A stretch of DNA of 64,000 nucleotides, taken from Candidatus Gastranaerophilales bacterium (GTDB lineage Bacteria; Cyanobacteriota; Vampirovibrionia; Gastranaerophilales; JAILCC01). The position numbers and the translations under genes are program-made. The DNA lies in contig JAQVHS010000001.1 in assembly GCA_028696075.1 (NCBI GenBank), positions 194,408 to 258,407 of the forward strand. The letters run 5' to 3'. Each line of letters starts with the position of its first letter. The stretch's first letter is position 1. The notes beneath the pieces are model-generated. The model saw only the letters and a list, made by a program, of their open reading frames with translations. It searched no databases and had not been told where the DNA came from. Positions 3,906-52,060 of the stretch are shown here, one piece after another.

Positions 3906-5507
3906 TTATTTTTTGAAATAAACGGGCATATACTTGTTTATATCCAATGGAACTGCTTGAGGCGGTTTGGTTTTTGTTTGATTTTTTTTGGTCATTGCAA
4001 TGTTTAGCTTTGGCAATATAATTCCAAGCATCAAAAGCGAATATGCAAGCCCTGAAATATGCGCTATGTTTAATTTTCTGATATTTTCTTTCACGAGCTT
4101 ACCGCCTTGAGCCGTTATTTCCGCATGGGTTTTCAGGGAAATATTTTTCAACCAGTGCGAGATACCTTTTCCCGGTTTTGAGATATTGAACAGATTTTCT
4201 TTTTTAGGGTCTAAAATTTGGGCAACACCTTTTGCCACAAAACCGCCTAAAACAAGCCAGTTAAGAAATCCCATATAATCTCTGAATACAGTTTCTCTTA
4301 ACTCTGTCTTGTCTTTTGATGCCAAAATCCTGCCCAAAACAAGCGCTCCAAAGACAACTTTGATAGCATGCCCGCTTGTTGCAGGTCCGGTAAGTTCTAA
4401 ACGCTTCACCAAATCTTTTAAACTGTTAATGTTCATCACCTTCACAAGCATTAAAATAAATCCGCTGCCTGCAAGAAGTTTATAAAGGTTTAAGTTCTTT
4501 TTCTTGTCTTCTCTCTTGTTTTGGGTGTTTAAGTCCGAAAGATAATCCATATTCCCTACAAATGCCGCAGTGCCTGTGCGTTTTTTTGTAATATATCGGT
4601 TTAACGCCTGATTTGTAAGTGCAAGCCCGATAGATAATGAAATTGCACCAAAGGTTTTGATACTGTTTAGCGCTTTTAATTTTTTGAGTATTGTTTCCGT
4701 ATCGGAAGAGTTGAATATATTTTGCCCTGCATCTATGGTATCTCTAAGAACGTTATGTATAGTACTTGTAACAGATTTCCCGCCGTTTTTAACGGTTATG
4801 TTATTTTCTGACAAAGTTGCATTAATTATTCTGTGGGTTATGATTTCCAGCAGGTTTTTTGAGTCATTCCCGCTGACGGTTTTGTCCGTTATTAACCTTG
4901 TTAATCCTTCTGATATACTTTGATGTGATTTGAGTGAGGTATGAATATTTTCAAATTCTTTATTACCCCATTTGAATTTTTGCCAGGCATCTTTGTCATA
5001 CCACCGGATTTTGTCCCAGTTAATTTCATTCCAGTTTATATTTTTATCCTTGCTAAAGCCTGATAAAGATGATAAAAGGTTCTCTACATAGCCTTTTGCT
5101 GTCTTATTTGAAGTGTTCCAAACATTATTTAATACATCAAGAATATTGTTGGATGCCCAGGAATTGTTATTTACTTTTACTTTTGGCTGTACAAATTTGG
5201 ACGCTGCTTTATTTATCAATTGCCCGAATAACCCGGCGGAAAAGCAGGCTATAAAAGTTCCCGTAAATTCCCTAAATGCCATCTCTGCAGCTGCATATTT
5301 GTTTCTTTCTCTATACTCTACAATAGGTCTTGGTATATCCATTGCAAACACATCAATCACAGAAGCGTTAATCATTGGTTTTGTATCAAGAATTGCCAGT
5401 CCTTTTGTTAATGTAGTGTCCAACACCCCTCTAAAATTGGGTTTTGAATAATTATTTTCTGCCTTCACTTTTATCATTTCTAACGTTCCTTTACTAAAAT
5501 TCTTCAC
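3906..5507 (-). CDS. hypothetical polytopic membrane protein
   Basis: 533-codon ORF from GTG 5507; an alternative ATG at 5477 is preceded by AAGGA. At least six hydrophobic segments. No family recognised. Lies 52 nt upstream of the DtxR-like gene on the same strand. Confidence 0.55.
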   Translation of the reverse strand: MKNFSKGTLEMIKVKAENNYSKPNFRGVLDTTLTKGLAILDTKPMINASVIDVFAMDIPRPIVEYRERNKYAAAEMAFREFTGTFIACFSAGLFGQLINKAASKFVQPKVKVNNNSWASNNILDVLNNVWNTSNKTAKGYVENLLSSLSGFSKDKNINWNEINWDKIRWYDKDAWQKFKWGNKEFENIHTSLKSHQSISEGLTRLITDKTVSGNDSKNLLEIITHRIINATLSENNITVKNGGKSVTSTIHNVLRDTIDAGQNIFNSSDTETILKKLKALNSIKTFGAISLSIGLALTNQALNRYITKKRTGTAAFVGNMDYLSDLNTQNKREDKKKNLNLYKLLAGSGFILMLVKVMNINSLKDLVKRLELTGPATSGHAIKVVFGALVLGRILASKDKTELRETVFRDYMGFLNWLVLGGFVAKGVAQILDPKKENLFNISKPGKGISHWLKNISLKTHAEITAQGGKLVKENIRKLNIAHISGLAYSLLMLGIILPKLNIAMTKKNQTKTKPPQAVPLDINKYMPVYFKK

Positions 5508-5761: not shown

Positions 5762-6400
5762 ATGAAAAAAATACTATGCTATGGAGATTCAAATACATAC
5801 GGCTATAACCCCGAAAACTCGGGCAGATACAACAAAACAACCCGCTGGACAGCTTTGCTTGTGAAGTTGCTTGGCAATGACTATGAAATTATTGAAGAAG
5901 GCTGTAATAACAGGACAGGATTTGCCTATAACCCTTGCGGATTTATCCAAAACGGTCAAAAGTATTTACCTGTTTGCCTGAGAGAATATTCGGATATTGA
6001 TATTGCAATATTAGCGCTTGGAACAAACGATTTACAGACATCTTTTCATATAGATTGGGAGATTGTTGAAAAAGGGTTGCTGACTCTTATTGCAACGGTT
6101 AAAAAATTCCACCCCGGTGCAAGAATTATTATTGTGCCGCCTGTAATTTTAAGCGAAGATATCTTGAACGGTGCTTTTGCCCACCAGTTTGACCGAAATT
6201 CAATTGATAAATCAAAACAAATAGGTCAGATATATAAGCAAATTGCACAAGCAAGCCATTGTGAAATTATAGACTTTAATGAATTTGTATCGCCGTCAGA
6301 ACAAGACGGGCTGCATTATTGTGCGCAAGCTCATGCAATCATAGCTGAAAAACTGACAGATTTTATTGAGGAGGGAACTTTTAATGAAAATAACCGTTAA
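5762..6400 (+). CDS. SGNH/GDSL-family hydrolase
   Basis: Block I CYGDSNTYGY, block III GTNDL and block V DGLHY (catalytic Ser/Asp/His signature). Confidence 0.85.
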   Translation: MKKILCYGDSNTYGYNPENSGRYNKTTRWTALLVKLLGNDYEIIEEGCNNRTGFAYNPCGFIQNGQKYLPVCLREYSDIDIAILALGTNDLQTSFHIDWEIVEKGLLTLIATVKKFHPGARIIIVPPVILSEDILNGAFAHQFDRNSIDKSKQIGQIYKQIAQASHCEIIDFNEFVSPSEQDGLHYCAQAHAIIAEKLTDFIEEGTFNENNR

Positions 6401-6584
6401 CGGCAAAGAAGTAGAATTATATAACTCTGATACAATAGCGGATTTTATTGTAGAGAGAAAAATTGCAGGCACAATGTTTGTGATTGAAAAGAATTTAAAA
6501 ATTATTAACAAAGAAGACTATGCCTCAGAACCGCTTCAAGAAAGCGACACTATAGAGTTAGTCGGTTTTACCGGAGGGGGTTAA
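6384..6584 (+). CDS. thiS: ThiS/MoaD-family sulfur-carrier protein (C-terminus ...VGFTGGG-stop)
   Basis: 66 aa starting MKITVNGK from ATG 6384, with GAGGAGGG RBS at 6368-6375. Ends in Gly-Gly-Gly directly before the stop. Overlaps the SGNH gene by 17 nt. The track ORF begins further upstream at 6366. Confidence 0.8.
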   Translation: MKITVNGKEVELYNSDTIADFIVERKIAGTMFVIEKNLKIINKEDYASEPLQESDTIELVGFTGGG

Positions 6585-7685
6585 GTGAAAGTACTTGTCG
6601 GTATGTCAGGCGGTGTTGATTCATCAACAACAGCAATATTACTGAAGGAACAAGGACACCGGGTCATTGGAGCAACAATGGCTATTTGGGGTAAGGGCGG
6701 TATTTATAAGCAAATTCAGGAGGAGCTGGATAAACTGCCGAAAAAAGCTCATGGAGCTTGTCTTGGACCTGATGAGAAAGAAGATATTGAAGCCGCAAAA
6801 AAAATTTGTGAACAGATAGGTATAGAATTTCACGTTTTTGATTGTGCAAAGCAATATCAGGAAATTGTGCTTGAAAATTTTAAAAAAGAATATTTGCACG
6901 GAAGAACCCCGAACCCTTGCATTTGGTGTAACGCACTTATCAAGTTTGATGTTTTACCCCGCCTTGCAAAACTTAACGGTATTGAATTTGATAAATTCGC
7001 TACAGGACACTATGCAAGAATTGAACAGGGCAACAACGGGCAACTCCTTTTAAAAAGAGGAATAAACCCTAAAAAAGACCAGTCGTATTTCTTGCACAGA
7101 TTAAATCAGGAACAGTTGAAAAATATTCTTTTACCGTTAGGCGGATTTGAAAAATCCGAAATAAGAGAAATTGCAAAATCCCAAGAGTTGAGCGTTGCGG
7201 ATAAACCCGACAGTCAGGATTTTTATGAGGGCGATTATAACCGGCTTTTGCAGGTCGAAAACAAAACAGGAAATATTACGGATACAAAAGGCAATATTTT
7301 AGGAACCCATAACGGAATATGGAATTTCACAATCGGACAGAGAAAAGGGCTTGGTATCAGCTCTACGGAAGCGCTTTATGTAATTGAGCTTAAAAAAGAT
7401 ACAAATGAAGTTGTCGTCGGTTTTAAAGACAAAACCATGAACGACAAACTTATTGCTGTCAAAATGAATTGGATAGGGTATGATAAACCTGAGAAGGAAC
7501 TTCGATGTTTCGCAAAAATCCGCTCCACTCAGGAACCGGCAGAAGTAACGGTGACTCCTTTGGCAAATGATGATATAGAAGTTACATTTACAAATATGCA
7601 AAATTCCATTGCTCCCGGGCAAGCCGTCGTGTTATATGAAGGCGATACAGTCTTAGGCGGCGGAATTATTGATAAAGTCTTATAG
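6585..7685 (+). CDS. mnmA: MnmA-like tRNA 2-thiouridylase (PP-loop ATPase), atypical active site
   Basis: GTG start directly after the thiS stop, with GGAGGGGG upstream. PP-loop SGGVDSS; motifs RTPNPCIWCNALIKF, ATGHYAR, KDQSYFL and TIGQRKGLGI. At the DS(Q/T)xICF motif the sequence reads DSQDFYEG, so Tyr replaces Cys. Confidence 0.8.
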   Translation: MKVLVGMSGGVDSSTTAILLKEQGHRVIGATMAIWGKGGIYKQIQEELDKLPKKAHGACLGPDEKEDIEAAKKICEQIGIEFHVFDCAKQYQEIVLENFKKEYLHGRTPNPCIWCNALIKFDVLPRLAKLNGIEFDKFATGHYARIEQGNNGQLLLKRGINPKKDQSYFLHRLNQEQLKNILLPLGGFEKSEIREIAKSQELSVADKPDSQDFYEGDYNRLLQVENKTGNITDTKGNILGTHNGIWNFTIGQRKGLGISSTEALYVIELKKDTNEVVVGFKDKTMNDKLIAVKMNWIGYDKPEKELRCFAKIRSTQEPAEVTVTPLANDDIEVTFTNMQNSIAPGQAVVLYEGDTVLGGGIIDKVL

Positions 7686-7704: not shown

Positions 7705-8427
7705 TTGATAAGATATGACAGAAATATATTAATCAATGAAATAGGCGCAGAGGGTCAAACAAAACTCCTGAGTGCAAAAGTTTTAATCTGCGGTGCAGGC
7801 GGGTTGGGGTCAACTGTTATTGCAAACCTTGCCGCTGCAGGAGTCGGCACTATCGGGATTGTAGACAATGATATTCTTGAGCTGTCTAATTTAAACAGAC
7901 AATATATTCATAAATTTGCAAATATCGGACAGGCAAAAATAAACTCTGCCAAAAACTGGATACAAGAATTTAACCCCGATATTAACATCAAGACTTATAA
8001 TGTAAGGCTCGATGAAAATAATTATCAATCAATTGCCGGCGAATATGATTTAATCATAGATTGTTTTGATAGTTTTGAATCAAAATTTTTACTAAATAAC
8101 ATTGCACTAAAGATGAATAAATCTTTAATAGCAGGCGGGGTAACGGAATTCAGGGGTCAGGTAACTACTGTTTTGCCCCATAAAAGTGCGTGTTTGAGAT
8201 GCCTGCTGCCTGATGCGGACCCGGAGGCTTATGTTGTAAAAGGAGTTATAAGCCCTACGGTATCTATGATAGCCTCTGTTGAATCTATGGAAGCTGTTAA
8301 ACTTATTCTCGGAACAGGTGAGCTTTTGACCAATCAATTGCTTGTCTTTGACGGATTACAAATGAACTTTAAAAAACTAAAATTTGAAAGAAATAAAAAC
8401 TGCAAATGGTGCAAAGATTATGAATAA
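7705..8427 (+). CDS. ThiF/MoeB/HesA-family E1-like adenylyltransferase
   Basis: TTG start with AAGGGAA upstream. RYDRNILINEIGAEGQTKL..VLICGAGGLGS nucleotide-binding fold. Two CxxC pairs (CLRC, CKWC). No rhodanese domain. Confidence 0.85.
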   Translation: MIRYDRNILINEIGAEGQTKLLSAKVLICGAGGLGSTVIANLAAAGVGTIGIVDNDILELSNLNRQYIHKFANIGQAKINSAKNWIQEFNPDINIKTYNVRLDENNYQSIAGEYDLIIDCFDSFESKFLLNNIALKMNKSLIAGGVTEFRGQVTTVLPHKSACLRCLLPDADPEAYVVKGVISPTVSMIASVESMEAVKLILGTGELLTNQLLVFDGLQMNFKKLKFERNKNCKWCKDYE

Positions 8428-9346
8428 GGAAGAATTATTAAAATTATATGACTTGGAGTTGGAGGAATTGGTTAAAATATCCTCGGCAATTACCAAAGAG
8501 CATTTTAAAAATACTGTAGAAGCCTGCTCTATTATCAGCGCAAAAACAGGTGAATGCCAAGAAAACTGCAAATACTGTTCCCAAAGCGCCCACAACGAAG
8601 CAAAGATTGAATGCCATCCTTTGCTTGAAGTTGAAAAAGTAAAACAGGCAGCGCTTGCGGCAAAAGAAAACGGCGCTACGAGATTTTGTATTGTAACATC
8701 AGGCAGAACCGTTGAAACCAAAGACTTTGGCAAAGTTTTAGACATGATAAAGGCAGTTGCATCAGTTGACGGAATACACTGCTGCGCTTCTTTGGGGCTT
8801 CTTGAAGAAGAGCAGATAAAACAAATTAAACAGGCAGGAGTAAAAAGATTTAACCACAATATCAATACATCAGAAAATTATCACAAAGAAATCTGTACCA
8901 CTCATAATTTTCAAGACAGAATAAATACAATCAAAACTTTGCAAAAATACGGGATAGAAGCCTGTACAGGCGTGATTTTGGGAATGGGTGAAACAAGGGA
9001 AGACAGGGTGGAGATGGCATTGTCTTTGGCTGAATTAAACCCTAAAACAGTTCCTGTCAATATTTTAAACCCCATCAAGGGTACCAAACTGGAGAATTAT
9101 TATGATAAAATTTCCGAAGAAGAAGTTCTAAGGACAATATGTATTTTCAGAATAGCAATGCCAAAAACAATACTAAGGTACGCAGGCGGCAGAAGTACAA
9201 GGTTTTCGCAAGAATATCAGTATTTAGGCATGCAAGCGGGAATTAACGGCATTCTTGTAGGGAATTACCTTACAACGAACGGAGTTGAAAAGGAAAACGA
9301 CCTGAAAATGCTTCATGATTTAGATTTACAATTAACCAAAGCTTAA
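8420..9346 (+). CDS. bioB: biotin synthase (radical SAM)
   Basis: ATG 8420 overlaps the upstream stop by 8 nt. CQENCKYCSQS radical-SAM motif, GATRFCIVTSGR, CCASLG, FNHNINTSENYH..TTHNFQDRINT and EACTGVILGMGE match BioB cluster ligand positions. Confidence 0.85.
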   Translation: MNKEELLKLYDLELEELVKISSAITKEHFKNTVEACSIISAKTGECQENCKYCSQSAHNEAKIECHPLLEVEKVKQAALAAKENGATRFCIVTSGRTVETKDFGKVLDMIKAVASVDGIHCCASLGLLEEEQIKQIKQAGVKRFNHNINTSENYHKEICTTHNFQDRINTIKTLQKYGIEACTGVILGMGETREDRVEMALSLAELNPKTVPVNILNPIKGTKLENYYDKISEEEVLRTICIFRIAMPKTILRYAGGRSTRFSQEYQYLGMQAGINGILVGNYLTTNGVEKENDLKMLHDLDLQLTKA

Positions 9347-26034: not shown

Positions 26035-26847
26035 TTAACCGATTTTAGTAAAGGTGTTATACAGATTGTTCAGTTCTTTAAAGTTATTCGCCTTCAAGCA
26101 GGTTGTTAAATATTGTGAGCTGTAAGCAGAGCATGCATCACCGTTAAAATCATATCTGCCCAAAGACAACAGCCCGTTTTTCGGCATTTTGGACGCAATC
26201 GTTTCTATCAGTGCAGAACGTTTTGCCTGAGGCAAATACGGTAAAAAATTCCTTGCCAGAACAATTGAAGGTATCGGATTATTCTGAGCTACCGCGAGCG
26301 CATCTGCCCGAGCAAATTGCACCGTATCTTTGACAACGTCGCGCAGTTCGAAATAACCGCTTTTACGGGATGCCTTGTTAACTTCAACAGATTTTTTAAA
26401 AAAATCACCCATCGTAAGATTTTTTAAATTTTTTAAACTTAAAATTATATCGATATAATCAATAAATAATATCCCTTTTTTGGCTTTTGCAATCATGTCA
26501 TTATCAACGTCATTGGCCATTATAGGAAAATATTTTTTTGCCTGATTTAATCCTAATCTATCGATTAATATCATTGCAAGAGAATAAGGTTCAGAACCGT
26601 CTGAGCAGGCAAAGCTTCTTATTTTGGTGCCATCGGGAAATTTTTGTATTATATAGTCTGCTGCTTTGCTCCAATCCAAATCACATCTGAAAAAATTGCT
26701 GTTATTCCTATAAAGCATTTCTCCTGCAGGAGTTGTAACTATTCTGGTAATACTTCCAAAAGACGTATTATTCACGGCAGCTGTATTTTCCTGCTTTTTG
26801 GCAGACAATTGAGATACATTATAAGGTTTAAAAAAATTAACTTGCAT
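26035..26847 (-). CDS. CheR-like SAM-dependent methyltransferase
   Basis: ATG 26847 with GAGG 8 nt upstream; the track start is TTG 26859. IRSFACSDGSEPYSLAMIL resembles the CheR IWSAGCSTGEEPYS motif. The N-terminal 60 aa are not CheR-like. Confidence 0.55.
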   Translation of the reverse strand: MQVNFFKPYNVSQLSAKKQENTAAVNNTSFGSITRIVTTPAGEMLYRNNSNFFRCDLDWSKAADYIIQKFPDGTKIRSFACSDGSEPYSLAMILIDRLGLNQAKKYFPIMANDVDNDMIAKAKKGILFIDYIDIILSLKNLKNLTMGDFFKKSVEVNKASRKSGYFELRDVVKDTVQFARADALAVAQNNPIPSIVLARNFLPYLPQAKRSALIETIASKMPKNGLLSLGRYDFNGDACSAYSSQYLTTCLKANNFKELNNLYNTFTKIG

Positions 26848-26901
26848 AACTAACCTCAATCATATAAATCTCAAGATAAAAAAAATTTGTTATGCAATAT
26901 G

Positions 26902-28176
26902 CTAAATTTGTGATTTTTCCAAGGCTTGATTAATATCTTCAATAATATCTTCTATATCCTCAATGCCAATACTTAACCTGATAAAATCTTCACTCAAGCC
27001 GGCAGCTTCCTGCTCTTGGGGGTTAAGCTGCTGATGGGTAGTGCTTGCGGGGTGAATGACCAAGGATTTGGCATCACCAATATTAGCTATGTGGGACAAG
27101 AGTTTTACGCTATCTATAAATTTTACTCCCGCTTCTTTGCCTCCTTTTATGCCAAAAGCCACTATTCCGCTTTGACCGCTGGGAAGGTATTTTTGAGCAA
27201 GGGTATAATTTTCGTCATCTTTTAGCCCGGGATAAATTACCCAGCCCACACCCGGATGTAATTTTAAAAACTCTGCAACTTTAAGGGCATTTTCGCTGTG
27301 TTTTTTCATACGCAGACTTAAAGTTTCTATTCCCTGTAATATTAAAAACGCGTTAAAAGGACTAAGCGCAGCTCCCGTATCACGAAGGATTTTAACCCTC
27401 ATTTTGGCTATAAAGGCGCAGTTGCCAAAAGCTTCCGTATAGCTTAAGCCGTGGTAACTCGGGTCTTTGTCTGTAAGGGTAGAGAATTTGCCTGATTTTG
27501 TCCAATCAAACTTACCGCTGTCTACCACTATTCCGCACATACTGGTGCCATGCCCGCCTAAATATTTGGTAGCAGAGTGAATTACAATATCTGCACCAAA
27601 ATCAACAGGTTTAAGCAAACTCGGGGTTGAAACCGTTGAATCAATGACAAGCGGAATATTATGTTTGTGTGCAATTTCGGCTAATCCTTCTATATCAGCA
27701 ACGGTTAAACGGGGATTAGCGATGGTTTCCGCAAAAATAAGTTTTGTCTTGGGAGTAATTGCTTTTTCAAACTCCAATGGGTCTGCGCTTTTAACAAAGT
27801 GTGTTTTTATCCCTAAATTAGGCAGGGTATTTTGAAACAGCGTATGAGTTCCGCCGTAAATAGAGCTTGAAGAAACAATCTCATCGCCTTGCATAGCAAT
27901 ATTTAAAATTGTATAAAAAATCGCAGACATACCTGAAGATACCGCCAAAGCAGCTGCGCCATGTTCAAGCATTGCAAGGCGTTTTTCCAAAACATCGGTA
28001 GTAGGATTCATAAGCCTTGTATAAATATTACCCGCCTGAGTGAGATTAAACAGATTTTTCGCATGTTCGGAGCTGTCAAAAGCAAATGCCGTTGTTTGAT
28101 AAATCGGTAACGCTCTTGAATTCGTAGCTTTATCAGGTTCCTGTGCGCCATGAATTTCTATAGTGCTGTCTTTCAT
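26902..28176 (-). CDS. metY: O-acetylhomoserine sulfhydrylase
   Basis: ATG 28176 preceded by AAGGAGAAAAATT. The track ORF extends to 28248 but would overlap the upstream gene by 61 nt. [14 protein letters not shown]-lysine motif. Cys/Met-metabolism PLP fold over the full length. Confidence 0.9.
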
Positions 28177-28187
28177 AATTTTTCTCC

Positions 28188-28385
28188 TTAACCGCCGCCA
28201 AAAAATCCGACAATTTCTATGCCGTCGTTTTCCTGTAATATCGTGCAATAATTTTCTTTGTAAATGATTTCCTTGTTTTTTTCCACTACAAACATTTTGG
28301 ACTTTACATTTGCAAATTCTATTAAATCCAAAATAGTAGCGTTTTCTTTAATATTAATATTTTTACCGTTTAAGATTACATTCAT
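28188..28385 (-). CDS. ThiS/MoaD-family sulfur-carrier protein, second copy (C-terminus ...VGFFGGG-stop)
   Basis: 65 aa, [10 protein letters not shown]... Paralog of 6384-6584 (shared F[VI][VI]EKN..II.KE.Y....LQE.D.IE[LI]VGF.GGG). Stop lies 9 nt before the metY start. Start overlaps the upstream PHP gene by 23 nt. Confidence 0.75.
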
Positions 28386-29037
28386 TTTCGCTTATTTCGC
28401 CTTTTTTTATTATAGCTTCCACGCTGTGAGAATCACTTCCGCCTGTTTGCAATAAATTCAGCTCTTGTGCGATTTTTTCGACATCAGAAGCTTCATAAAA
28501 TTTTATTATACTCCTGTGCCTGCGATAAGCATAATTTGTTTCCAATCCGTCAAGCCCGTACGTTATTAATTTTTTTACGGTGTTTTTCAAATTTAAGCTC
28601 CAGCAGCATGCAGGATGAGCCAAAACCGCTATACCGCCTGCAGCCTTAATTGCCTTTATAACAGCTTTTGCGCTCCTGTAATTGATTAATCTTATAATAT
28701 CGTTTGTGGCACAAAGCTTGTTTTTTGCATAAAGCTTGATTAATTCAGGATGATTTACATCAATCCCGTAACCTAAAATATGCATGTATACATATCCGTG
28801 CCAGCAGTCAAATTCAACGCTTTTAATAATTTGAATTTCATCATCACTTTGCACCTGATTATGGGCGGCAACAACATTGTGATCTGTTATAGCAATAATT
28901 TTAAACCCTTTTTCCTTGCAGGCATCAGCGACTTGCTGCGGAGTGTTTTCACCGTCGGAACAGTCGGTGTGAATATGCAAATCCACCGTATTAAAAAAAT
29001 CCTCTTTTTTTATATTTGCTAAAAAGTCTTTCATCAC
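28363..29037 (-). CDS. PHP-domain metal-dependent hydrolase
   Basis: VDLHIHTDCSDGENTP N-terminal PHP motif, ITDHN, AHP and GGSDSH metal-ligand motifs. 224 aa. Confidence 0.75.
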   Translation of the reverse strand: MMKDFLANIKKEDFFNTVDLHIHTDCSDGENTPQQVADACKEKGFKIIAITDHNVVAAHNQVQSDDEIQIIKSVEFDCWHGYVYMHILGYGIDVNHPELIKLYAKNKLCATNDIIRLINYRSAKAVIKAIKAAGGIAVLAHPACCWSLNLKNTVKKLITYGLDGLETNYAYRRHRSIIKFYEASDVEKIAQELNLLQTGGSDSHSVEAIIKKGEISENECNLKR

Positions 29038-29038
29038 G

Positions 29039-29317
29039 CTAGCCTGCTATTTGTAAAAGGAGCATTATAACTACCCTTTGCACAAGTCCTAATACAATAA
29101 AAGCCACAATCGGGGATAAATCTATTCCTGATATAGGCGGTATAAGGTTTCTGAAAGGAGTTAAAATAGGGTCTGTAATATCCTTTAAAGTTTTGCCAAA
29201 ACCGCTGTACCAGTTCATATTAGGAACCCAGGACAGTAAAATTCTGACTAAAAGAGTCCATATAAGAATTTCAAAAAACAAATTTATACCATTTATAATA
29301 ATTGCTATTGACATCAT
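29039..29317 (-). CDS. yggT: YggT-family membrane protein
   Basis: 92 aa with two TM helices. ILLSWVP....ITDPILTPFRNLIPPISGIDLSPIVAFIVL is typical of YggT/Ycf19. Confidence 0.75.
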   Translation of the reverse strand: MMSIAIIINGINLFFEILIWTLLVRILLSWVPNMNWYSGFGKTLKDITDPILTPFRNLIPPISGIDLSPIVAFIVLGLVQRVVIMLLLQIAG

Positions 29318-30123
29318 AAACGTCCTCTTTTTAAAGTTTCAAAACAGTAACAATTTTTCTGCTCTTGCGGAATAACTTCAATTAAATCGAACAATACTTT
29401 CTTCAAATTGGTAATGTTTTTTTCAAATACTTCTATTACGGCGCTATGGCTAACCGGCTCTGTATCGCTTACCAAACCGGCATCATAGTCCGTAACAAGA
29501 CAAATGGTAACAGGACACATGTCAAATTCTTTCACCAAATGGCTTTCAGGGTAGTTGGTCATTCCTATAACGCTCCAGCCTTGAGAAGTATAGAATTTTG
29601 ATTCGGCTTTTGTGCTGAATCTCGGACCGTTAATAACAAGCATTGTACCTGTTTGATGAACAGTTACATTATTCTTTTGTGCCGCTTGAACTGCTAAATC
29701 ACGAAGCTCGGGACAATAAGGGTCTGCAGCGCTAATATGTGTACATATCGGACCTTCAAAGAAAGTATCTTTTCTGCCTGAAGTCCAATTGACAAACTGG
29801 TCAACAATGACAAAATCACCCGGTGCAATTTCTTTTTGCAGGCTGCCTACCGCACAAGGCGAAATAACCCTCTTAACCCCTAAAGCTCTCATCGCCCAAA
29901 CGTTAGCGCGATAGTTAATTTGATGGGGCAAAATTGTATGTTTTCTGCCGTGGCGCGGCAAAAATGCAACTTTTTTATCGCATATTGTACCTAGCATAAG
30001 ACTGTCTGAGGGTGAACCGTAGGGGGTTTCTATTTGAACTTCTTTAATATCATCTAAAAATTTGTAAAATCCGCTGCCGCCAAAAATACCTATGTCAGCT
30101 TTTTCTTTAACGTCATTAAACAT
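29314..30123 (-). CDS. mtnP: S-methyl-5'-thioadenosine phosphorylase
   Basis: IGIFGGSGFY, FLPRHGRKHTILPHQINYRANVWAMRALGV and GMTNYPE motifs of MTAP-type PNP family. Confidence 0.9.
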   Translation of the reverse strand: MFNDVKEKADIGIFGGSGFYKFLDDIKEVQIETPYGSPSDSLMLGTICDKKVAFLPRHGRKHTILPHQINYRANVWAMRALGVKRVISPCAVGSLQKEIAPGDFVIVDQFVNWTSGRKDTFFEGPICTHISAADPYCPELRDLAVQAAQKNNVTVHQTGTMLVINGPRFSTKAESKFYTSQGWSVIGMTNYPESHLVKEFDMCPVTICLVTDYDAGLVSDTEPVSHSAVIEVFEKNITNLKKVLFDLIEVIPQEQKNCYCFETLKRGRL

Positions 30124-30889: not shown

Positions 30890-31855
30890 ATGAAGAAAAA
30901 ACAAACCTATATTGTACTCGATGTTGAAACAACAGGACTTGATGTCTATAAAGAAAAAATGATTGAATTTGCCGCTGTAAAGCTGGTTGGCAATAAAATA
31001 ACAGAAACATTTGAAACTTTAATAAATCCGCAGCAGCCAATAAGACACTCAAGTTTTTTGGTGCATGGTATTTCTCAAGAAGAAGTAGAAAACCAACCCG
31101 TTTATGAAGAAATCATGCCCGCGATTTTGGAATTTATAGGGGACTATCCCCTTGTCGGACATAACGTGATTTTTGACTACAGCTTTTTAAACAGAGCGAC
31201 TAAAAATCTCTACGGAAAAGAACTTACAAATCATATAATAGATTCTCAGGCTATGTTTAAAGAAGTTTTCCCGGAAGAAGCCTCCCACGGGCTGGAAGCC
31301 TTAATGACAAGGATGAAGGTTATATTTTCAACAAGACACCGTGCCATGGCTGACACAATGGGACTTGCGCAGGCTTTCCCAAAACTTAAAAAACTCTATG
31401 ATAAAAAATGCGCCTGGCAGCTTTCGCAATGCGAAAATGTTCCCTATCTGTTTGAAAGATACCTTAGAGTCCAAAATGCCATTCAGGTAATGCAGTCGGA
31501 ACTTTTGGACTTAAAATCAATATTTAAAGTTTATTTTGAAAACGGCGGCGATGAAGTTATGTCAGTTACCGGCGAAACTTTGGTCTATAACTCTAAATCA
31601 GGTTATACTTATGACTTTGAAAAAATCAGACCCTGCCTTGATGAAATTGAATCAATTAATAAAGTCATCAAATTAAACAGCGGTTTATTAGACAGAATGG
31701 TTTTGAGTAAAAGTCTTGATGATGATGTAAAAGAAATATTACGCTCTGCAAGGACAGGATTTTCTGAAAACAAAAGCGTTAACATTGTCAAAGCCTCTAA
31801 AAACGGTAACGGGAATGGTAACGGCAACGGTAACGGCAGCCACGAAAACGATTAA
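30890..31855 (+). CDS. DEDDh 3'-5' exonuclease (DnaQ/epsilon-like) with uncharacterised C-terminal domain and (Asn-Gly)6 tail
   Basis: Exo I VLDVETTG, Exo II GHNVIFDYSFL and Exo III HRAMADT motifs in the first 170 aa. The remaining 150 aa are unrecognised. Ends KNGNGNGNGNGNGSHEND. Confidence 0.8.
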   Translation: MKKKQTYIVLDVETTGLDVYKEKMIEFAAVKLVGNKITETFETLINPQQPIRHSSFLVHGISQEEVENQPVYEEIMPAILEFIGDYPLVGHNVIFDYSFLNRATKNLYGKELTNHIIDSQAMFKEVFPEEASHGLEALMTRMKVIFSTRHRAMADTMGLAQAFPKLKKLYDKKCAWQLSQCENVPYLFERYLRVQNAIQVMQSELLDLKSIFKVYFENGGDEVMSVTGETLVYNSKSGYTYDFEKIRPCLDEIESINKVIKLNSGLLDRMVLSKSLDDDVKEILRSARTGFSENKSVNIVKASKNGNGNGNGNGNGSHEND

Positions 31856-42129: not shown

Positions 42130-43269
42130 CTATTTACGTGCTTTTTTTCCGGTTTCTCTTTCTTTTTCCAAGGTGCGTTTCACATTATCCAAAGAGATTT
42201 TCAACAACATTTTTCTGTTTTTGCCGTCAAAAAACACAAACCATAACTTTTGTTTGGGGTTTTCAATATTAAAAGAAATTTTTCCTGCCATGCGTGAATT
42301 AGGCGATAATTTTTTAAACCACAAATCCGTATCGCTAAACGGAGAAGCATGAAAAACAGCCTTCGTGTCATTCATCAAAGCCATATCAAATGTAGACAGC
42401 TGCCTGTCTGTTTTATTAACTATACTAAGTGTCAGTGTAATAGTATTCGGTTCACCGAAGGGGTCTTTTTCATAAGTAATATTTGTAATTCGTACATCTA
42501 AATTCTCATTAAAAAATTCATTATCCAAAAGCGCTGATTCTTTCATGACCCTTAATTTTGTTTTTTCGGTAAGTTTAACATTAATCTCATCACCTTGTGC
42601 AAGCAACACCTCATTGCCTTTTTTGCTCATAGCAACGGCAAGTCCGACAGCACCGCCCACACCTGCTCCGCCGATAACCGTATAGCCCTGACTTGCTACA
42701 GCCGCAGGAAGTCCGAACATTTGCAATGCCAGTAATCCGCCCAACGCGCCTCCGCCTAGAGTATAGCCGGCATGAGTAGCCGTAACCTTAGCCGCATTGG
42801 CAACAGGATTTCTTTTAGTGGTCATTCTAGCTTCTATCGGAATTTCTCTGCCGTCAGGAGTTACAATATAGTCAAAATTAAGCGTCACATTGGCATCACG
42901 GCTAAAACGCTTGGAATTCACAATCTCGATAATTGTGCCGTGGGCAACGCTTCCTGCCGGAACTACAACCCCGTCCTCGGTTTTGATTTCATTTGTAATC
43001 TGGGCAAAAAATTCATCGCCTCTGACGTTATTTTCGGTATTAATAATGTTGGCGACAACCATTTTAACCACTGTTCCTTTGTCTAAAACCGTGGTTTTAT
43101 CGGTTAAAATCTCACTGTCTTCTTTAAACTCATCGTTAATTTGAGCATAACCGCGAAAAACATAGCCATTTTCACCCATTTTAGGGGCTTCCGCACTATA
43201 AGACACAGTACCTGCAAAAAGGCTTATAACAAGAGCTGCTGCCGCTAATATATTTAAAGGCTTTCTCAT
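42130..43269 (-). CDS. secreted hypothetical protein with glycine-zipper segment
   Basis: Signal peptide MRKPLNILAAAALVISLFAGTVSYSA. Central GGGALGGLLALQMFGLPAAV..GGAGVGGAVGLAVA. Beta-rich C-terminal domain. No family assigned. Confidence 0.55.
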   Translation of the reverse strand: MRKPLNILAAAALVISLFAGTVSYSAEAPKMGENGYVFRGYAQINDEFKEDSEILTDKTTVLDKGTVVKMVVANIINTENNVRGDEFFAQITNEIKTEDGVVVPAGSVAHGTIIEIVNSKRFSRDANVTLNFDYIVTPDGREIPIEARMTTKRNPVANAAKVTATHAGYTLGGGALGGLLALQMFGLPAAVASQGYTVIGGAGVGGAVGLAVAMSKKGNEVLLAQGDEINVKLTEKTKLRVMKESALLDNEFFNENLDVRITNITYEKDPFGEPNTITLTLSIVNKTDRQLSTFDMALMNDTKAVFHASPFSDTDLWFKKLSPNSRMAGKISFNIENPKQKLWFVFFDGKNRKMLLKISLDNVKRTLEKERETGKKARK

Positions 43270-49565: not shown

Positions 49566-51035
49566 ATGGATAAAAAAATATTAGTTATAGATGACAGCAA
49601 AACCCAACTCCTGACAACGAAAATGAAGTTAGAGAAGAACGGTTTTGAAGTGGTTTGTGCAGAGAATGGAATGGACGGTATGAAAAAAGTGTATGAAACC
49701 TGCCCGGACCTCGTCTTATCTGATATTATCATGCCGAATATTAACGGTTATCACTTATGCAGACTATTAAAACAGGATGAAAAAACTTCTCACATCCCGA
49801 TAATTTTGCTGACGGTTTTGGATAAAAAAATAGACCGCTTTTGGGGCATAAGAGCAGGTGCTGACGGATTTTTTAACAAAGACGGCAACAGTGAAGAATT
49901 AATCCAGAAGATTTATGATTTACTGGAAAAAGCCGAAGAAGACAAACGCTTTTCCCCTGCCTGCCAAATTATGGATGATTATGATTTTAATACCAAAATT
50001 ACCGAAATTTTGGACGAGTCTTTGGTTGAATCTACCTTAATCAATGAATTTAGGGATTTAGCAGAATTTGTACTGGAAGAAAAAATCTTTAATAACAGAT
50101 TATTTGAGCTTTTGTCCTCCATTTTGGATTACAATCTGGCGGGTGTTTTCTACAATGACAGTGATAAAAAAGATAAGGTAATTTATTTTTCGCAAAATGA
50201 ATGCGAAGTAAGCAGTGATATTATTTCTCAAACGAGGGATTTAATTCATACCCATATTACAGACAGGAATCTTGCTTATTCGCAATATAAACTTGATTAT
50301 AAAATCCTTGAAAGCTCAGCGAATATCAAATCCTTTAGACAAAATATCGATGACATGAACCAATTCAAATCAGAGCTTATAATCCCCATAGAAAACGAGG
50401 GGAAATTAATAGGAGCTTTAGCGTTGTTCCATGTTTTACCAAACAAATATAATAATTCCAAAATCCTTCATATTGTGCTTTCCGAATTAAAAATGGTGCT
50501 GAAAATAAGATGGCTGTACTCCGAAACCAAGCTGCTGTCCATTATCGACCCATTAACAACCTTGTATAACCGCAGATATTTTCAGCAGGTACTGGAAAAA
50601 GAATTTTCACGTTCAAATCGTTATGCCTCACCATTAAGTATTGCCATGGTTGATATTGATAATTTCAAAAAGTTAAACGACAGTTACGGTCATTTATTTG
50701 GTGATGAAATTTTGCAAACCATTTCCAAACTGTTTTTGGATTCTTTCAGAAAAACTGACTATGTAGCCAGATACGGCGGTGAGGAATTAGTGGCTGTTTT
50801 GCCTGAAACCACGCTTGAGCAAGCTATAATACCGTTTGAAAGACTAAGAAACAAAATTCAAAACTATGCTTTCGTTTATGATGAAAAAAGAATAAACGTA
50901 ACCGTCAGTATCGGCATTGCCCAAAATAATTTTGACATGCTGACTACCGATAATTTCATCAAACAAGCTGACGAAGCGTTATACATTGCAAAAGAAAAAG
51001 GCAAGAACAGAATAGAATTGGCATTTTCGGGGTAA
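49566..51035 (+). CDS. response regulator receiver - central sensor-like domain - GGDEF diguanylate cyclase
   Basis: REC domain (ILVIDDS..., DLVLSDIIMPNINGY, K in ILLT..). C-terminal DPLTTLYNRRYF, RYGGEEL (GGEEL active site) and an RKTD I-site 5 residues upstream. Confidence 0.85.
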   Translation: MDKKILVIDDSKTQLLTTKMKLEKNGFEVVCAENGMDGMKKVYETCPDLVLSDIIMPNINGYHLCRLLKQDEKTSHIPIILLTVLDKKIDRFWGIRAGADGFFNKDGNSEELIQKIYDLLEKAEEDKRFSPACQIMDDYDFNTKITEILDESLVESTLINEFRDLAEFVLEEKIFNNRLFELLSSILDYNLAGVFYNDSDKKDKVIYFSQNECEVSSDIISQTRDLIHTHITDRNLAYSQYKLDYKILESSANIKSFRQNIDDMNQFKSELIIPIENEGKLIGALALFHVLPNKYNNSKILHIVLSELKMVLKIRWLYSETKLLSIIDPLTTLYNRRYFQQVLEKEFSRSNRYASPLSIAMVDIDNFKKLNDSYGHLFGDEILQTISKLFLDSFRKTDYVARYGGEELVAVLPETTLEQAIIPFERLRNKIQNYAFVYDEKRINVTVSIGIAQNNFDMLTTDNFIKQADEALYIAKEKGKNRIELAFSG

Positions 51036-51037
51036 TT

Positions 51038-52060
51038 ATGGATAATACTTTTTTTCTGACTCAAGACAACGAAATTTTACCTGAATTTTTAATCGCCTTC
51101 GTTAATGACCAAGGCTACGCTTTTGATATAAAGTTCCTGGTAAAAATTATTCAGCTGCCTTCTTTTGCAGCAATAGAAAAAACACCGCCTAACGCAGCGG
51201 GCATAATAAATTTACATGGTGAAAATATAGCGGCATATGATTTAAAAACCTGTTTGGGGCTTGAACAAAAAGAATTTTCCGCTTCGCAGCAGGTTTTGGT
51301 TTTTAATGTAAATGAGAAAAAATTTGCGATTATTGTTGACAAAACAGGAGATATTATAACAGCAAATATATCAACCTCCAAAGCTATAGCGTACAATTCC
51401 GTTAATAAGTTTTTATCTGCCGGTTTGGAAATTAATCAAGCGCAAATTATTCTGGTTGATATAGAAAAATTCATAAACCAGTTTGATAATCTTGAATACT
51501 CTATTACCGGTATTTCCGATATAAAGCCGCCTTCTTCCTGCAATGCCGTTGTTAAACTTGAAGAAAGGGCCGTTATTCTGCAGGAAAAACAGGAAACAGC
51601 GCTAAATATCGATTATGAAAACATAGAAAAGTTTTTAATTTTTTCGCTAAATGACGAATATTACTGTTTTAGCCTTAGATATGTAAAAAAAATCAAAACA
51701 ACCACAGATAAATCTATAACAATAATCCCATGCACCCCGCCTTATATTAAAGGCATTATTAACTTCAGGGGAGATTATGTCTGCCTTATTGATATTAAAA
51801 GCTTTTTAAACATAGGTAATGATAAACCGAAAAATAAATTGACCGTTATAATTATAAACATCGATAAGTACAAACTTGCAATGATTGTAGATAATATCGT
51901 TGATATCACAAATTTGCCGTTTGAAATGGTGAAGCCCAAAGATGATGATTCGGGTTTCATAATCGGTGAACTTTACAATAACGAAGATAAAAGACTTATT
52001 AACATTTTAAATGTCGAAAAGTTATTTTCGAGCGAAAATATAAACATAGAAGATTATTAA
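51038..52060 (+). CDS. cheW: protein with two tandem CheW-like domains
   Basis: Two copies of the CheW pattern: FLIAFVNDQGYAFDIKFLVKI...AAGIINLHGENIAAYDLK and FLIFSLNDEYYCFSLRYVKKI...IKGIINFRGDYVCLIDIK. Starts 3 nt after the GGDEF gene. Confidence 0.75.
   Translation: MDNTFFLTQDNEILPEFLIAFVNDQGYAFDIKFLVKIIQLPSFAAIEKTPPNAAGIINLHGENIAAYDLKTCLGLEQKEFSASQQVLVFNVNEKKFAIIVDKTGDIITANISTSKAIAYNSVNKFLSAGLEINQAQIILVDIEKFINQFDNLEYSITGISDIKPPSSCNAVVKLEERAVILQEKQETALNIDYENIEKFLIFSLNDEYYCFSLRYVKKIKTTTDKSITIIPCTPPYIKGIINFRGDYVCLIDIKSFLNIGNDKPKNKLTVIIINIDKYKLAMIVDNIVDITNLPFEMVKPKDDDSGFIIGELYNNEDKRLINILNVEKLFSSENINIEDY

Follow-up and report, generated by a model that had tools for sequence, protein, structure and literature searches.

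Why would a genome that encodes one ThiS-like sulfur carrier keep a second one directly in front of metY? The question is raised by a 64,000-nucleotide stretch of DNA (the window) from a metagenome-assembled genome (MAG) of a gut melainabacterium, Candidatus Gastranaerophilales. Here the short gene thiS2 is found between the genes of a PHP-domain protein and of the O-acetylhomoserine sulfhydrylase MetY, while the first carrier gene, thiS1, belongs to another operon together with mnmA and thiF. An earlier note on this DNA had assigned thiS2 to a protein-thiocarboxylate route to methionine and had seen a hint that the PHP protein releases the product from the carrier. To judge from the related loci compared here, thiS2 encodes a second melainabacterial ThiS carrier, with its frame intact, that is specific to this lineage. 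It is tentatively regarded as the dedicated carrier of MetY, charged by the only ThiF of the window, and the PHP protein is a bystander outside the carrier chemistry.

The second carrier gene and its neighbours

Scoring above the curated profile cut-offs and ending in Gly-Gly (FFGGG), ThiS2 is by sequence a bona fide member of the ThiS family. Its frame is intact, its hidden Markov model (HMM) score equals that of ThiS1 (TIGR01683 55.8 vs. 55.9), and the family-wide MFVVEKN... signature is retained together with all family-conserved positions and the terminal Gly-Gly. As the chain ends directly in GGG, C-terminal processing is not needed, in agreement with the earlier note and in contrast to the Wolinella carrier, which according to that note does require it. 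ThiS2 and ThiS1 share only 47% identity, and thiS2 is therefore an old retained paralogue or an acquired gene rather than a recent duplicate. The best identity found in a database of 5.8 billion sequences is 58–61%, and ThiS2 is about equidistant (51–62% identity) from all melainabacterial ThiS proteins. Identity matrices, calculated for both ThiS and MetY, fail to separate duplication from transfer as the origin of the gene, and the search for insertion scars around it yielded only chance repeats of 9–11 nt. In the nearest relatives sampled the PHP gene and metY are directly adjacent; a gain of thiS2 in the lineage of the window and its loss in the lineage of the related loci L001–L004 would each require one event.

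The content of guanine plus cytosine (GC) is 28.8% in thiS2, 34% in thiS1, 33% in yggT and 37–41% in the PHP gene, mtnP and metY. The low value of thiS2 could point to a foreign origin or merely reflect the K/N/I-rich composition of a short gene. The closest homologue of ThiS2 (61% identity; L081, 4227-6756 of the locus, on a 2.6-Mb contig) is encoded between a radical S-adenosylmethionine (SAM) gene and a gene of the histidine/phenylalanine ammonia-lyase family, a ThiS context of another kind.

In the window thiS2 is part of a tightly packed minus-strand run in the order mtnP, yggT, PHP, thiS2 and metY, behind which a further gene follows on the same strand:

29314-30123, minus strand: mtnP, 5'-methylthioadenosine phosphorylase, opening the run (TIGR01694 286.8, cut-off 274.85; NF005876 339.5, cut-off 306)
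29039-29317, minus strand: yggT, small membrane protein (PF02325, E = 8.6e-22; YGGT 77.8, cut-off 27)
28363-29037, minus strand: PHP gene, GTG start with an alternative ATG at 29034 (PF02811 40.9, cut-off 26.4)
28188-28385, minus strand: thiS2, 65 aa, ending in GFFGGG before the stop codon (PF02597 33.4, cut-off 22.5, E = 6.7e-8; TIGR01683 55.8, cut-off 37.45)
26902-28176, minus strand: metY, ATG start, the longest open reading frame beginning with TTG at 28248 (Cys_Met_Meta_PP PF01053, E = 7e-141; TIGR01326 653.7, cut-off 495.1)
26035-26859, minus strand: SAM-dependent methyltransferase of CheR-like type, following metY after a 42-nt gap (PF01739, E = 7.6e-23)

All five family assignments of the run exceed the curated thresholds of Pfam or NCBIfam. 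Inspection of open reading frames, junctions and profile scores confirmed the gene identities, the gene order, all four junctions and the metY ribosome-binding site as the earlier note had described them. The genes mtnP and yggT overlap by 4 nt (ATGA), yggT and the PHP gene are separated by 1 nt (4 nt given the ATG start of the latter), and the PHP gene overlaps thiS2 by 23 nt with the thiS2 start lying inside the PHP frame. Between thiS2 and metY there is an 11-nt gap, and the strong ribosome-binding site of metY, AAGGAG, borrows the final two bases of the TAA stop codon of thiS2 (taAGGAGaaaaattATG).

Promoter-like sites are located at 30201-30157, in the 133-nt gap between mtnP and the divergent rplI. 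No terminator-like site was found between thiS2 and metY, nor between metY and the CheR-like gene, which is possibly the last gene of the transcript. Internally, the run contains a single weak terminator-like site, inside thiS2, and fewer such sites than shuffled sequence. Rfam at the gathering threshold gave a tRNA-His only, with no methionine or SAM riboswitch and no T-box upstream of the run. In no related locus does yggT adjoin the PHP gene or metY, and in the best explanation YggT, MtnP and PHP are co-transcribed bystanders. The CheR-like gene stands isolated directly behind metY; the remaining signalling genes of the window, which encode a response-regulator-GGDEF protein and a double-CheW protein, are far away (49566-52060, plus strand).

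The PHP protein and its genomic contexts

In the earlier note the overlap of the PHP gene with thiS2 had been read as translational coupling of a carrier to its hydrolase, and a phylogenetic profile of PHP-ThiS-MetY triads had been suggested as a check. PHP and metY loci were scanned by tblastn with 17 window proteins and with a ThiS HMM built from 108 homologues. Using one genome per species, 80 loci with a PHP orthologue were obtained, nearly all of them labelled Gastranaerophilales or Melainabacteria. The gene is conserved across 80 Gastranaerophilales species, and since no isolate occurs twice among the loci it was treated as a single-copy orthologue. None of the 80 loci contains a thiS gene within ~6 kb of the PHP gene. 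Two of them, L001 and L002, have metY next to it, both without thiS; in L001 the end of the PHP gene runs 11 nt into metY, and in L002 the two genes are 17 nt apart, leaving no room for a carrier gene. Outside the window no triad was detected in the 80 PHP loci and 80 metagenomic metY loci, and eight distinct thiS contexts examined are devoid of a PHP gene.

The usual surroundings of the PHP gene are of a different kind. In 73 of the 80 loci it is divergent from the gene of a ~330-aa membrane protein, beyond which the gene of a 74-aa Zn-ribbon protein (65 loci) and that of RNase PH (53 loci) are situated ~1–3 kb upstream of the PHP gene (L005–L080). All three neighbours are absent from the window and from L001–L004. 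The proximity of RNase PH fits an RNA-processing, RNase AM-like role of the PHP protein.

The metal ligands of the PHP protein (His20, His22, Asp27, His52, Glu74, His85, His140, Asp201 and His203) and three arginines are invariant among 46 homologues. The closest sequence matches in the PDB (9etk, 3e0f, 7ug9 and 2yb1) comprise RNase AM from V. cholerae and E. coli, Bifidobacterium TrpH and the pAp phosphatase Cv1693. The AlphaFold2 model has a predicted local distance difference test score (pLDDT) of 89, with values below 50 for the tail residues 215–223. Foldseek places the PHP domain of RNase AM first (7ug9, E = 3.5e-15, template modelling scores 0.68/0.74), followed by 9etk, 2yb1 and 3e0f. 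The protein resembles RNase AM (YciV/TrpH) and the 3',5'-nucleoside bisphosphate phosphatase Cv1693 in its PHP barrel and nine metal ligands. In contrast to these enzymes it is ~60–70 residues shorter and lacks the insertion domain, a ~45-residue segment between two aligned blocks of the PDB homologues. The equivalog scores remain far below their cut-offs (RNase RNM NF047791 82.4 vs. 375; nucleoside bisphosphate phosphatase NF041577 76.1 vs. 400). Taking sequence and model together, the protein looks like a nucleotide or RNA 5'-phosphoesterase of the RNase AM/TrpH type without the insertion domain.

Where it overlaps thiS2, the PHP frame encodes a tail behind the conserved ...SVEAIIKK. This tail differs in each of the window and L001–L004, and the model predicts it to be disordered. 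Accordingly, the 23-nt overlap is regarded as an incidental run-on and not as a conserved coupling device, contrary to the coupling claimed before. The PHP protein is a bystander outside the carrier chemistry, and its place beside thiS2 is specific to this lineage.

ThiS operons in the window and in other Melainabacteria

The first carrier gene is located on the opposite strand, in the following arrangement:

5762-6400, plus strand: GDSL/SGNH hydrolase, overlapping thiS1 by 17 nt (PF13472, E = 1e-18)
6384-6584, plus strand: thiS1, in the canonical position of the lineage upstream of mnmA and thiF (TIGR01683 55.9, cut-off 37.45)
6585-7685, plus strand: mnmA, tRNA 2-thiouridine(34) synthase variant (NF001138 391.9, cut-off 284)
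7705-8427, plus strand: thiF/moeB-type E1-like adenylyltransferase (NCBIfam MoeB/ThiF/UbaA, E = 1e-63 to 1e-73, all below the equivalog cut-offs)
8384-9346, plus strand: bioB, part of the 'sulfur island' after thiF (TIGR00433 383.8, cut-off 225)
9359-10294, plus strand: cysK, completing the 'sulfur island' (TIGR01139 457.6, cut-off 351)

The earlier note had located the single ThiF-type E1 and the carrier gene overlapping the SGNH gene correctly. ThiF carries no rhodanese domain, is the only E1 of the window and shares 59–66% identity with the ThiF proteins of other melainabacterial thiS clusters; presumably it activates both ThiS1 and ThiS2.

The commonest arrangement in related genomes is thiS-mnmA-thiF without metY (L083–85, L166, L174), and the closest homologue of thiS1 is found in such a cluster in the order GerE-thiS-mnmA-thiF (L174). 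A gene of 70–78 aa encoding a GerE/LuxR-type helix-turn-helix protein is usually located just upstream of melainabacterial thiS (L083 4703-4933, L166 2524-2736, L167 4712-4948, L174 297-530) and could regulate it. The GDSL/SGNH gene holds this position in the window; in other loci a cysE, a radical-SAM or an unannotated membrane-protein gene precedes thiS. No SGNH homologue was found beside thiS in L081–L085, L166–L170 and L174. By this comparison the SGNH gene is a lineage-specific neighbour, and its overlap with thiS1, taken in the earlier note as a mirror image of the PHP-thiS2 overlap, is unique to this genome among the ThiS loci examined. Two overlapping hydrolase-carrier pairs in one genome had resembled a pattern, but comparative genomics finds both to be lineage-specific, and the pairing is on these contexts not more than chance. 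The PHP protein is a PHP barrel and the SGNH protein is GDSL-like, neither with the JAMM/MPN motif E...HxH...S..D; as candidates for a JAMM/MPN isopeptidase both were rejected on account of the wrong fold and the absent zinc motif.

MnmA is the usual client of the ThiS/ThiF pair. Alignment of the window MnmA with PDB entry 9hln and six melainabacterial orthologues reveals that CxxC is kept and the equivalent of Cys199 is deleted. All seven ThiS-linked MnmAs read DSQDFY with a 3-residue deletion in place of the DS(T/Q)GICF of E. coli/B. subtilis-type MnmA, and they retain PNPCxxCN and the conserved cysteine in 'ACYGP'. Cys199/Cys200 of MnmA acts as persulfide carrier or as third Fe-S ligand (PMC7025502). 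The papers of 2020–2021 consulted, PMC7025502 among them, assigned thiocarboxylate donors to TtuA/Ncs6 only and left the Fe-S mechanism of MnmA open, and the reviews consulted do not describe thiocarboxylate use by any MnmA. The occurrence of a Cys199-less MnmA within a thiS-mnmA-thiF triad points to the ThiS thiocarboxylate (ThiS-COSH) as sulfur donor of this variant and suggests an MnmA subtype that would take its sulfur from ThiS-COSH. With the TtuB/TtuC/TtuA system of Thermus and with Urm1/Uba4/Ncs6 (PMC8584467), the window and at least six further melainabacterial loci have in common that the genes of a carrier, an E1 and a tRNA thiouridylase of the PP-loop type occur side by side. Unlike in the TtuA/Ncs6 relays, the thiouridylase belongs to the MnmA family, and it lacks the Cys199/Cys200 of both known MnmA types.

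Three further lineages of Melainabacteria have metY downstream of thiS-mnmA (L082, L170, L175), in two of them also upstream of thiF (L082, L170). L082 (4075-9262) reads cysE-thiS-mnmA-metY-thiF, the end of metY and the beginning of thiF sharing 4 nt, L170 (65-4450) reads thiS-mnmA-metY-larE-thiF, and L175, whose MetY is annotated ACD_20C, contains the 3' end of thiS followed by mnmA and metY. To judge from gene order, a link between MetY and the ThiS relay is thus a recurrent one in this group.

The ThiS/ThiF operons also gather other sulfur enzymes, namely serine O-acetyltransferase and BioB in L082, a LarE-family sacrificial sulfur transferase in L170 and BioB and CysK in the window, and look like 'sulfur-insertion islands'. 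Converging on cysK, the window encodes the radical-SAM [FeFe]-hydrogenase maturase HydE (10291-11343, minus strand; TIGR03956 381, cut-off 255), and not the ThiH that one might expect so near to ThiS. Elsewhere in the window, four sizeable open reading frames have no Pfam match at E = 1e-4 (3906-5507, minus strand, 533 aa; 11427-12479, minus strand, 350 aa; 14233-15129, plus strand, 298 aa; 42130-43269, minus strand, 379 aa), of which the first two resemble membrane or secreted proteins with low-complexity tails. A DnaQ/RNase T-type exonuclease of 321 aa (30890-31855, plus strand) is extended considerably at its C terminus, where it closes with a (GN)6 repeat (...KNGNGNGNGNGNGSHEND).

The sulfur supply of MetY

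Among solved structures, the window MetY matches 8sf5 (556 bits) and 7kb0 (547 bits) best, the latter being the MetY of T. maritima, which uses sulfide. The score of the window protein for the 'homocysteine synthase' equivalog NF006096 is just under the cut-off (678.5 vs. 726). On these scores it is classed as an O-acetylhomoserine (thiol)-lyase/homocysteine synthase of the conventional clade, which includes the sulfide-using T. maritima enzyme. The ThiS-linked MetYs of L082, L170 and L175 are 67–69% identical to it.

Neighbourhoods of ThiS, JAB, E1 and O-acetylhomoserine sulfhydrylase genes were catalogued in 2006 (Iyer et al., PMC1779556). Class 4e of that survey corresponds to the HcyS/HcyF/HcyD/MetY thiocarboxylate pathway to methionine in Wolinella succinogenes, as outlined by way of PMC5764234 and PMC8191291 (Krishnamoorthy and Begley 2011). 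The position of thiS2 had been called a hallmark of this pathway. What holds of this claim is the location of a Gly-Gly-ended ThiS/MoaD-fold carrier gene just upstream of that of an O-acetylhomoserine sulfhydrylase and the recurrence of the ThiS-MetY link. What does not hold is the type of MetY, which is not orthologous to that of Wolinella (3ri6, 270 bits, vs. 556 for 8sf5), and the remaining gene set, since JAB/JAMM, SirA and genes of sulfate/sulfite assimilation were not found among the ~50 window proteins scanned with Pfam and NCBIfam. An E1-like adenylyltransferase without rhodanese domain is encoded in the window too, but at a distance of 20 kb, as part of the operon of thiS1 and mnmA; in L082 and L170 thiF shares an operon with metY. 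By analogy, the locus would work like the Wolinella system but is not a member of it.

The CysO/CysM/MoeZ/Mec+ system of M. tuberculosis (class 4d of Iyer 2006) is similar in that a thiocarboxylated ThiS-like protein is the proposed donor for a pyridoxal phosphate (PLP)-dependent sulfhydrylase, and the window has cysK downstream of thiS1. In contrast to that system, the JAB protein (Mec+) and ClpS are not present, the E1 is devoid of the MoeZ rhodanese domain, and it is metY and not cysM that lies beside thiS2. Thiamine ThiS/ThiF is resembled insofar as ThiS1 and ThiS2 score above the TIGR01683 threshold and the E1 is similar to ThiF/MoeB. Unlike in the thiamine system, thiG, thiH, thiO, thiC and thiE are absent from the window and from the called genes of the related loci, and the co-encoded clients are MnmA, MetY, BioB, CysK and LarE.

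As the best explanation, offered tentatively though with a sizeable chance of being right, thiS2 would provide MetY with a carrier of its own, which the only ThiF of the window would charge. ThiF (7705-8427) would adenylate the C-terminal glycine of ThiS2, and sulfide or a persulfide would convert the acyl-adenylate into ThiS2-COSH. The latter would replace free sulfide in MetY by attacking the PLP-bound intermediate formed from O-acetylhomoserine, and homocysteine would be freed by a hydrolase encoded outside this operon. ThiS1 would serve the neighbouring Cys199-less MnmA for 2-thiouridine at tRNA position 34 (s2U34). Such a division of labour would explain why a divergent, intact carrier gene is found exactly before metY in a genome where metY is outside the thiS1 operon. 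The 11-nt spacing, the strong metY ribosome-binding site and the lack of a terminator between the two genes argue for it, and the use of a carrier thiocarboxylate as MetY sulfur donor has a precedent in Wolinella, as sketched in PMC8191291.

A number of findings weigh against ThiS2 as donor for MetY. The thiocarboxylate-dependent W. succinogenes enzyme 3ri6 ranks only 29th among the matches to solved structures (270 bits), below methionine gamma-lyases. The closest MetYs, those of L171–173 (72% identity), stand alone with no thiS nearby, as do those of L001 and L002 (61–68%). The ThiS-linked MetYs form no separate clade, that of L082 being 79–81% identical to stand-alone MetYs, and tblastn together with the ThiS HMM detected thiS in none of the 80 metagenomic metY loci. 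As the earlier note had already observed for the window, a JAMM protease is missing: the motif H.H...S..D does not occur in any window reading frame of at least 60 aa (regular-expression search), no MPN/JAB Pfam match is present among the ~50 window proteins scanned, and the genes called in L082, L170 and L175 include no JAMM/JAB. Each characterised sulfhydrylase-carrier system depends on a JAB/JAMM protein for the release of the amino acid. The animal gut, the source of most of these MAGs, is generally rich in sulfide, and a carrier would be less needed there. Finally, the Shine-Dalgarno sequence of thiS2 is weak and its GC content atypically low.

The main rival, only slightly less probable than the best explanation, is a sulfur island under shared regulation, in which ThiS/ThiF feeds MnmA, MetY uses free sulfide and no sulfur is passed directly from ThiS to MetY. 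The genes cysE, cysK, metY, bioB and larE would then cluster by shared regulation or on account of cysteine as sulfur source of the carrier. In that case thiS2 would be a redundant or back-up copy, a rearranged thiS-mnmA-metY remnant or a horizontally acquired gene feeding MnmA or another acceptor. This is consistent with the predominance of triads without metY, the additional presence of cysE, bioB, cysK and larE in the clusters, the sulfide-using member 7kb0 and the stand-alone orthologues of the MetY clade, the lack of a JAB gene in every cluster seen, and the low GC content and weak ribosome-binding site of thiS2. Iyer et al. (2006, PMC1779556) likewise explained independent ties of ThiS/ThiF to cysteine synthase and O-acetylhomoserine sulfhydrylase by cysteine as the sulfur donor of ThiS. 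However, shared regulation leaves the intact and divergent second thiS exactly before metY, outside the thiS1 cluster, without explanation, and the position of metY between carrier and E1, translationally coupled to thiF in L082, is tighter than expected from loose regulon clustering. The more comprehensive proposal of a JAMM-less ThiS/ThiF relay in Melainabacteria is rather unlikely as a whole; it would serve two clients, the Cys-less MnmA for s2U34 and the conventional-clade MetY for homocysteine, each with its own carrier here (ThiS1 and ThiS2) and with a non-JAMM hydrolase for release.

It is improbable that thiS2 serves thiazole or thiamine synthesis (via ThiG or Thi4) or some other acceptor whose gene lies beyond the window, with an accidental place next to metY. 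Both ThiS copies do score above the TIGR01683 'thiS' equivalog threshold, and certain prokaryotes have Thi4 in a cluster with ThiS/ThiF (bioRxiv 10.1101/2025.09.23.678117), but neither the 64-kb window nor the called genes of the related thiS loci include ThiG, ThiH, ThiC, ThiE, ThiO or Thi4. Moreover, Di Rienzi 2013 (PMC3787301), the only specific literature that turned up on vitamins in Melainabacteria or on thiamine or methionine in Gastranaerophilales, does not count thiamine among the complete vitamin pathways of Melainabacteria. Taken together, these two findings make a thiamine role for two ThiS copies unlikely, and a chance landing before metY is improbable given the recurrent thiS-mnmA-metY linkage. 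Quite improbable, too, is a decaying relic, left behind by an insertion or duplication and now hardly expressed or without function. The weak Shine-Dalgarno sequence, the start 23 nt within the PHP frame, the GC content of 28.8% and the failure to find an orthologue of more than 61% identity are compatible with decay, while the intact frame, the preserved family positions and Gly-Gly terminus and an HMM score equal to that of ThiS1 are not.

By far the least probable is the model of the earlier note, according to which the PHP protein replaces the JAMM protease HcyD on the ThiS2-homocysteine amide, the SGNH protein acts likewise on ThiS1 adducts, and the gene overlaps couple hydrolase and carrier translationally. 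It draws on the 23-nt and 17-nt overlaps, on the missing JAMM protein and on the adjacency of PHP and metY in three species (the window, L001 and L002); a sub-threshold match of the PHP protein to CehA/McbA carbamate hydrolases (58 bits vs. a cut-off of 80) makes chemistry other than that of phosphoesters not unthinkable. These points are opposed by the absence of a second triad among the 80 PHP loci and the 80 metY loci, by L001 and L002, which show the PHP-metY pair without a carrier, and by the unrelated neighbours of PHP in 73 of 80 loci. They are further opposed by the full and invariant phosphoesterase metal site on a fold closest to RNase AM, TrpH and Cv1693, by the unconserved overlap tail with pLDDT below 50, and by the SGNH-thiS adjacency being confined to this genome. 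What is left is a JAMM-less, ThiS-linked MetY of the conventional clade in Melainabacteria.

If ThiS2 indeed feeds MetY, homocysteine synthesis from a carrier thiocarboxylate would extend to a MetY clade otherwise known for the use of free sulfide. The pathway would also reach the non-photosynthetic sister lineage of Cyanobacteria, posing the question of which enzyme replaces the JAMM protease. A more solid by-product is the thiS-mnmA-thiF triad, which is conserved across Melainabacteria and comprises an MnmA without the catalytic or cluster-binding Cys199. This triad supplies a directly testable candidate for the sulfur donor of MnmA enzymes that are not of the E. coli type.

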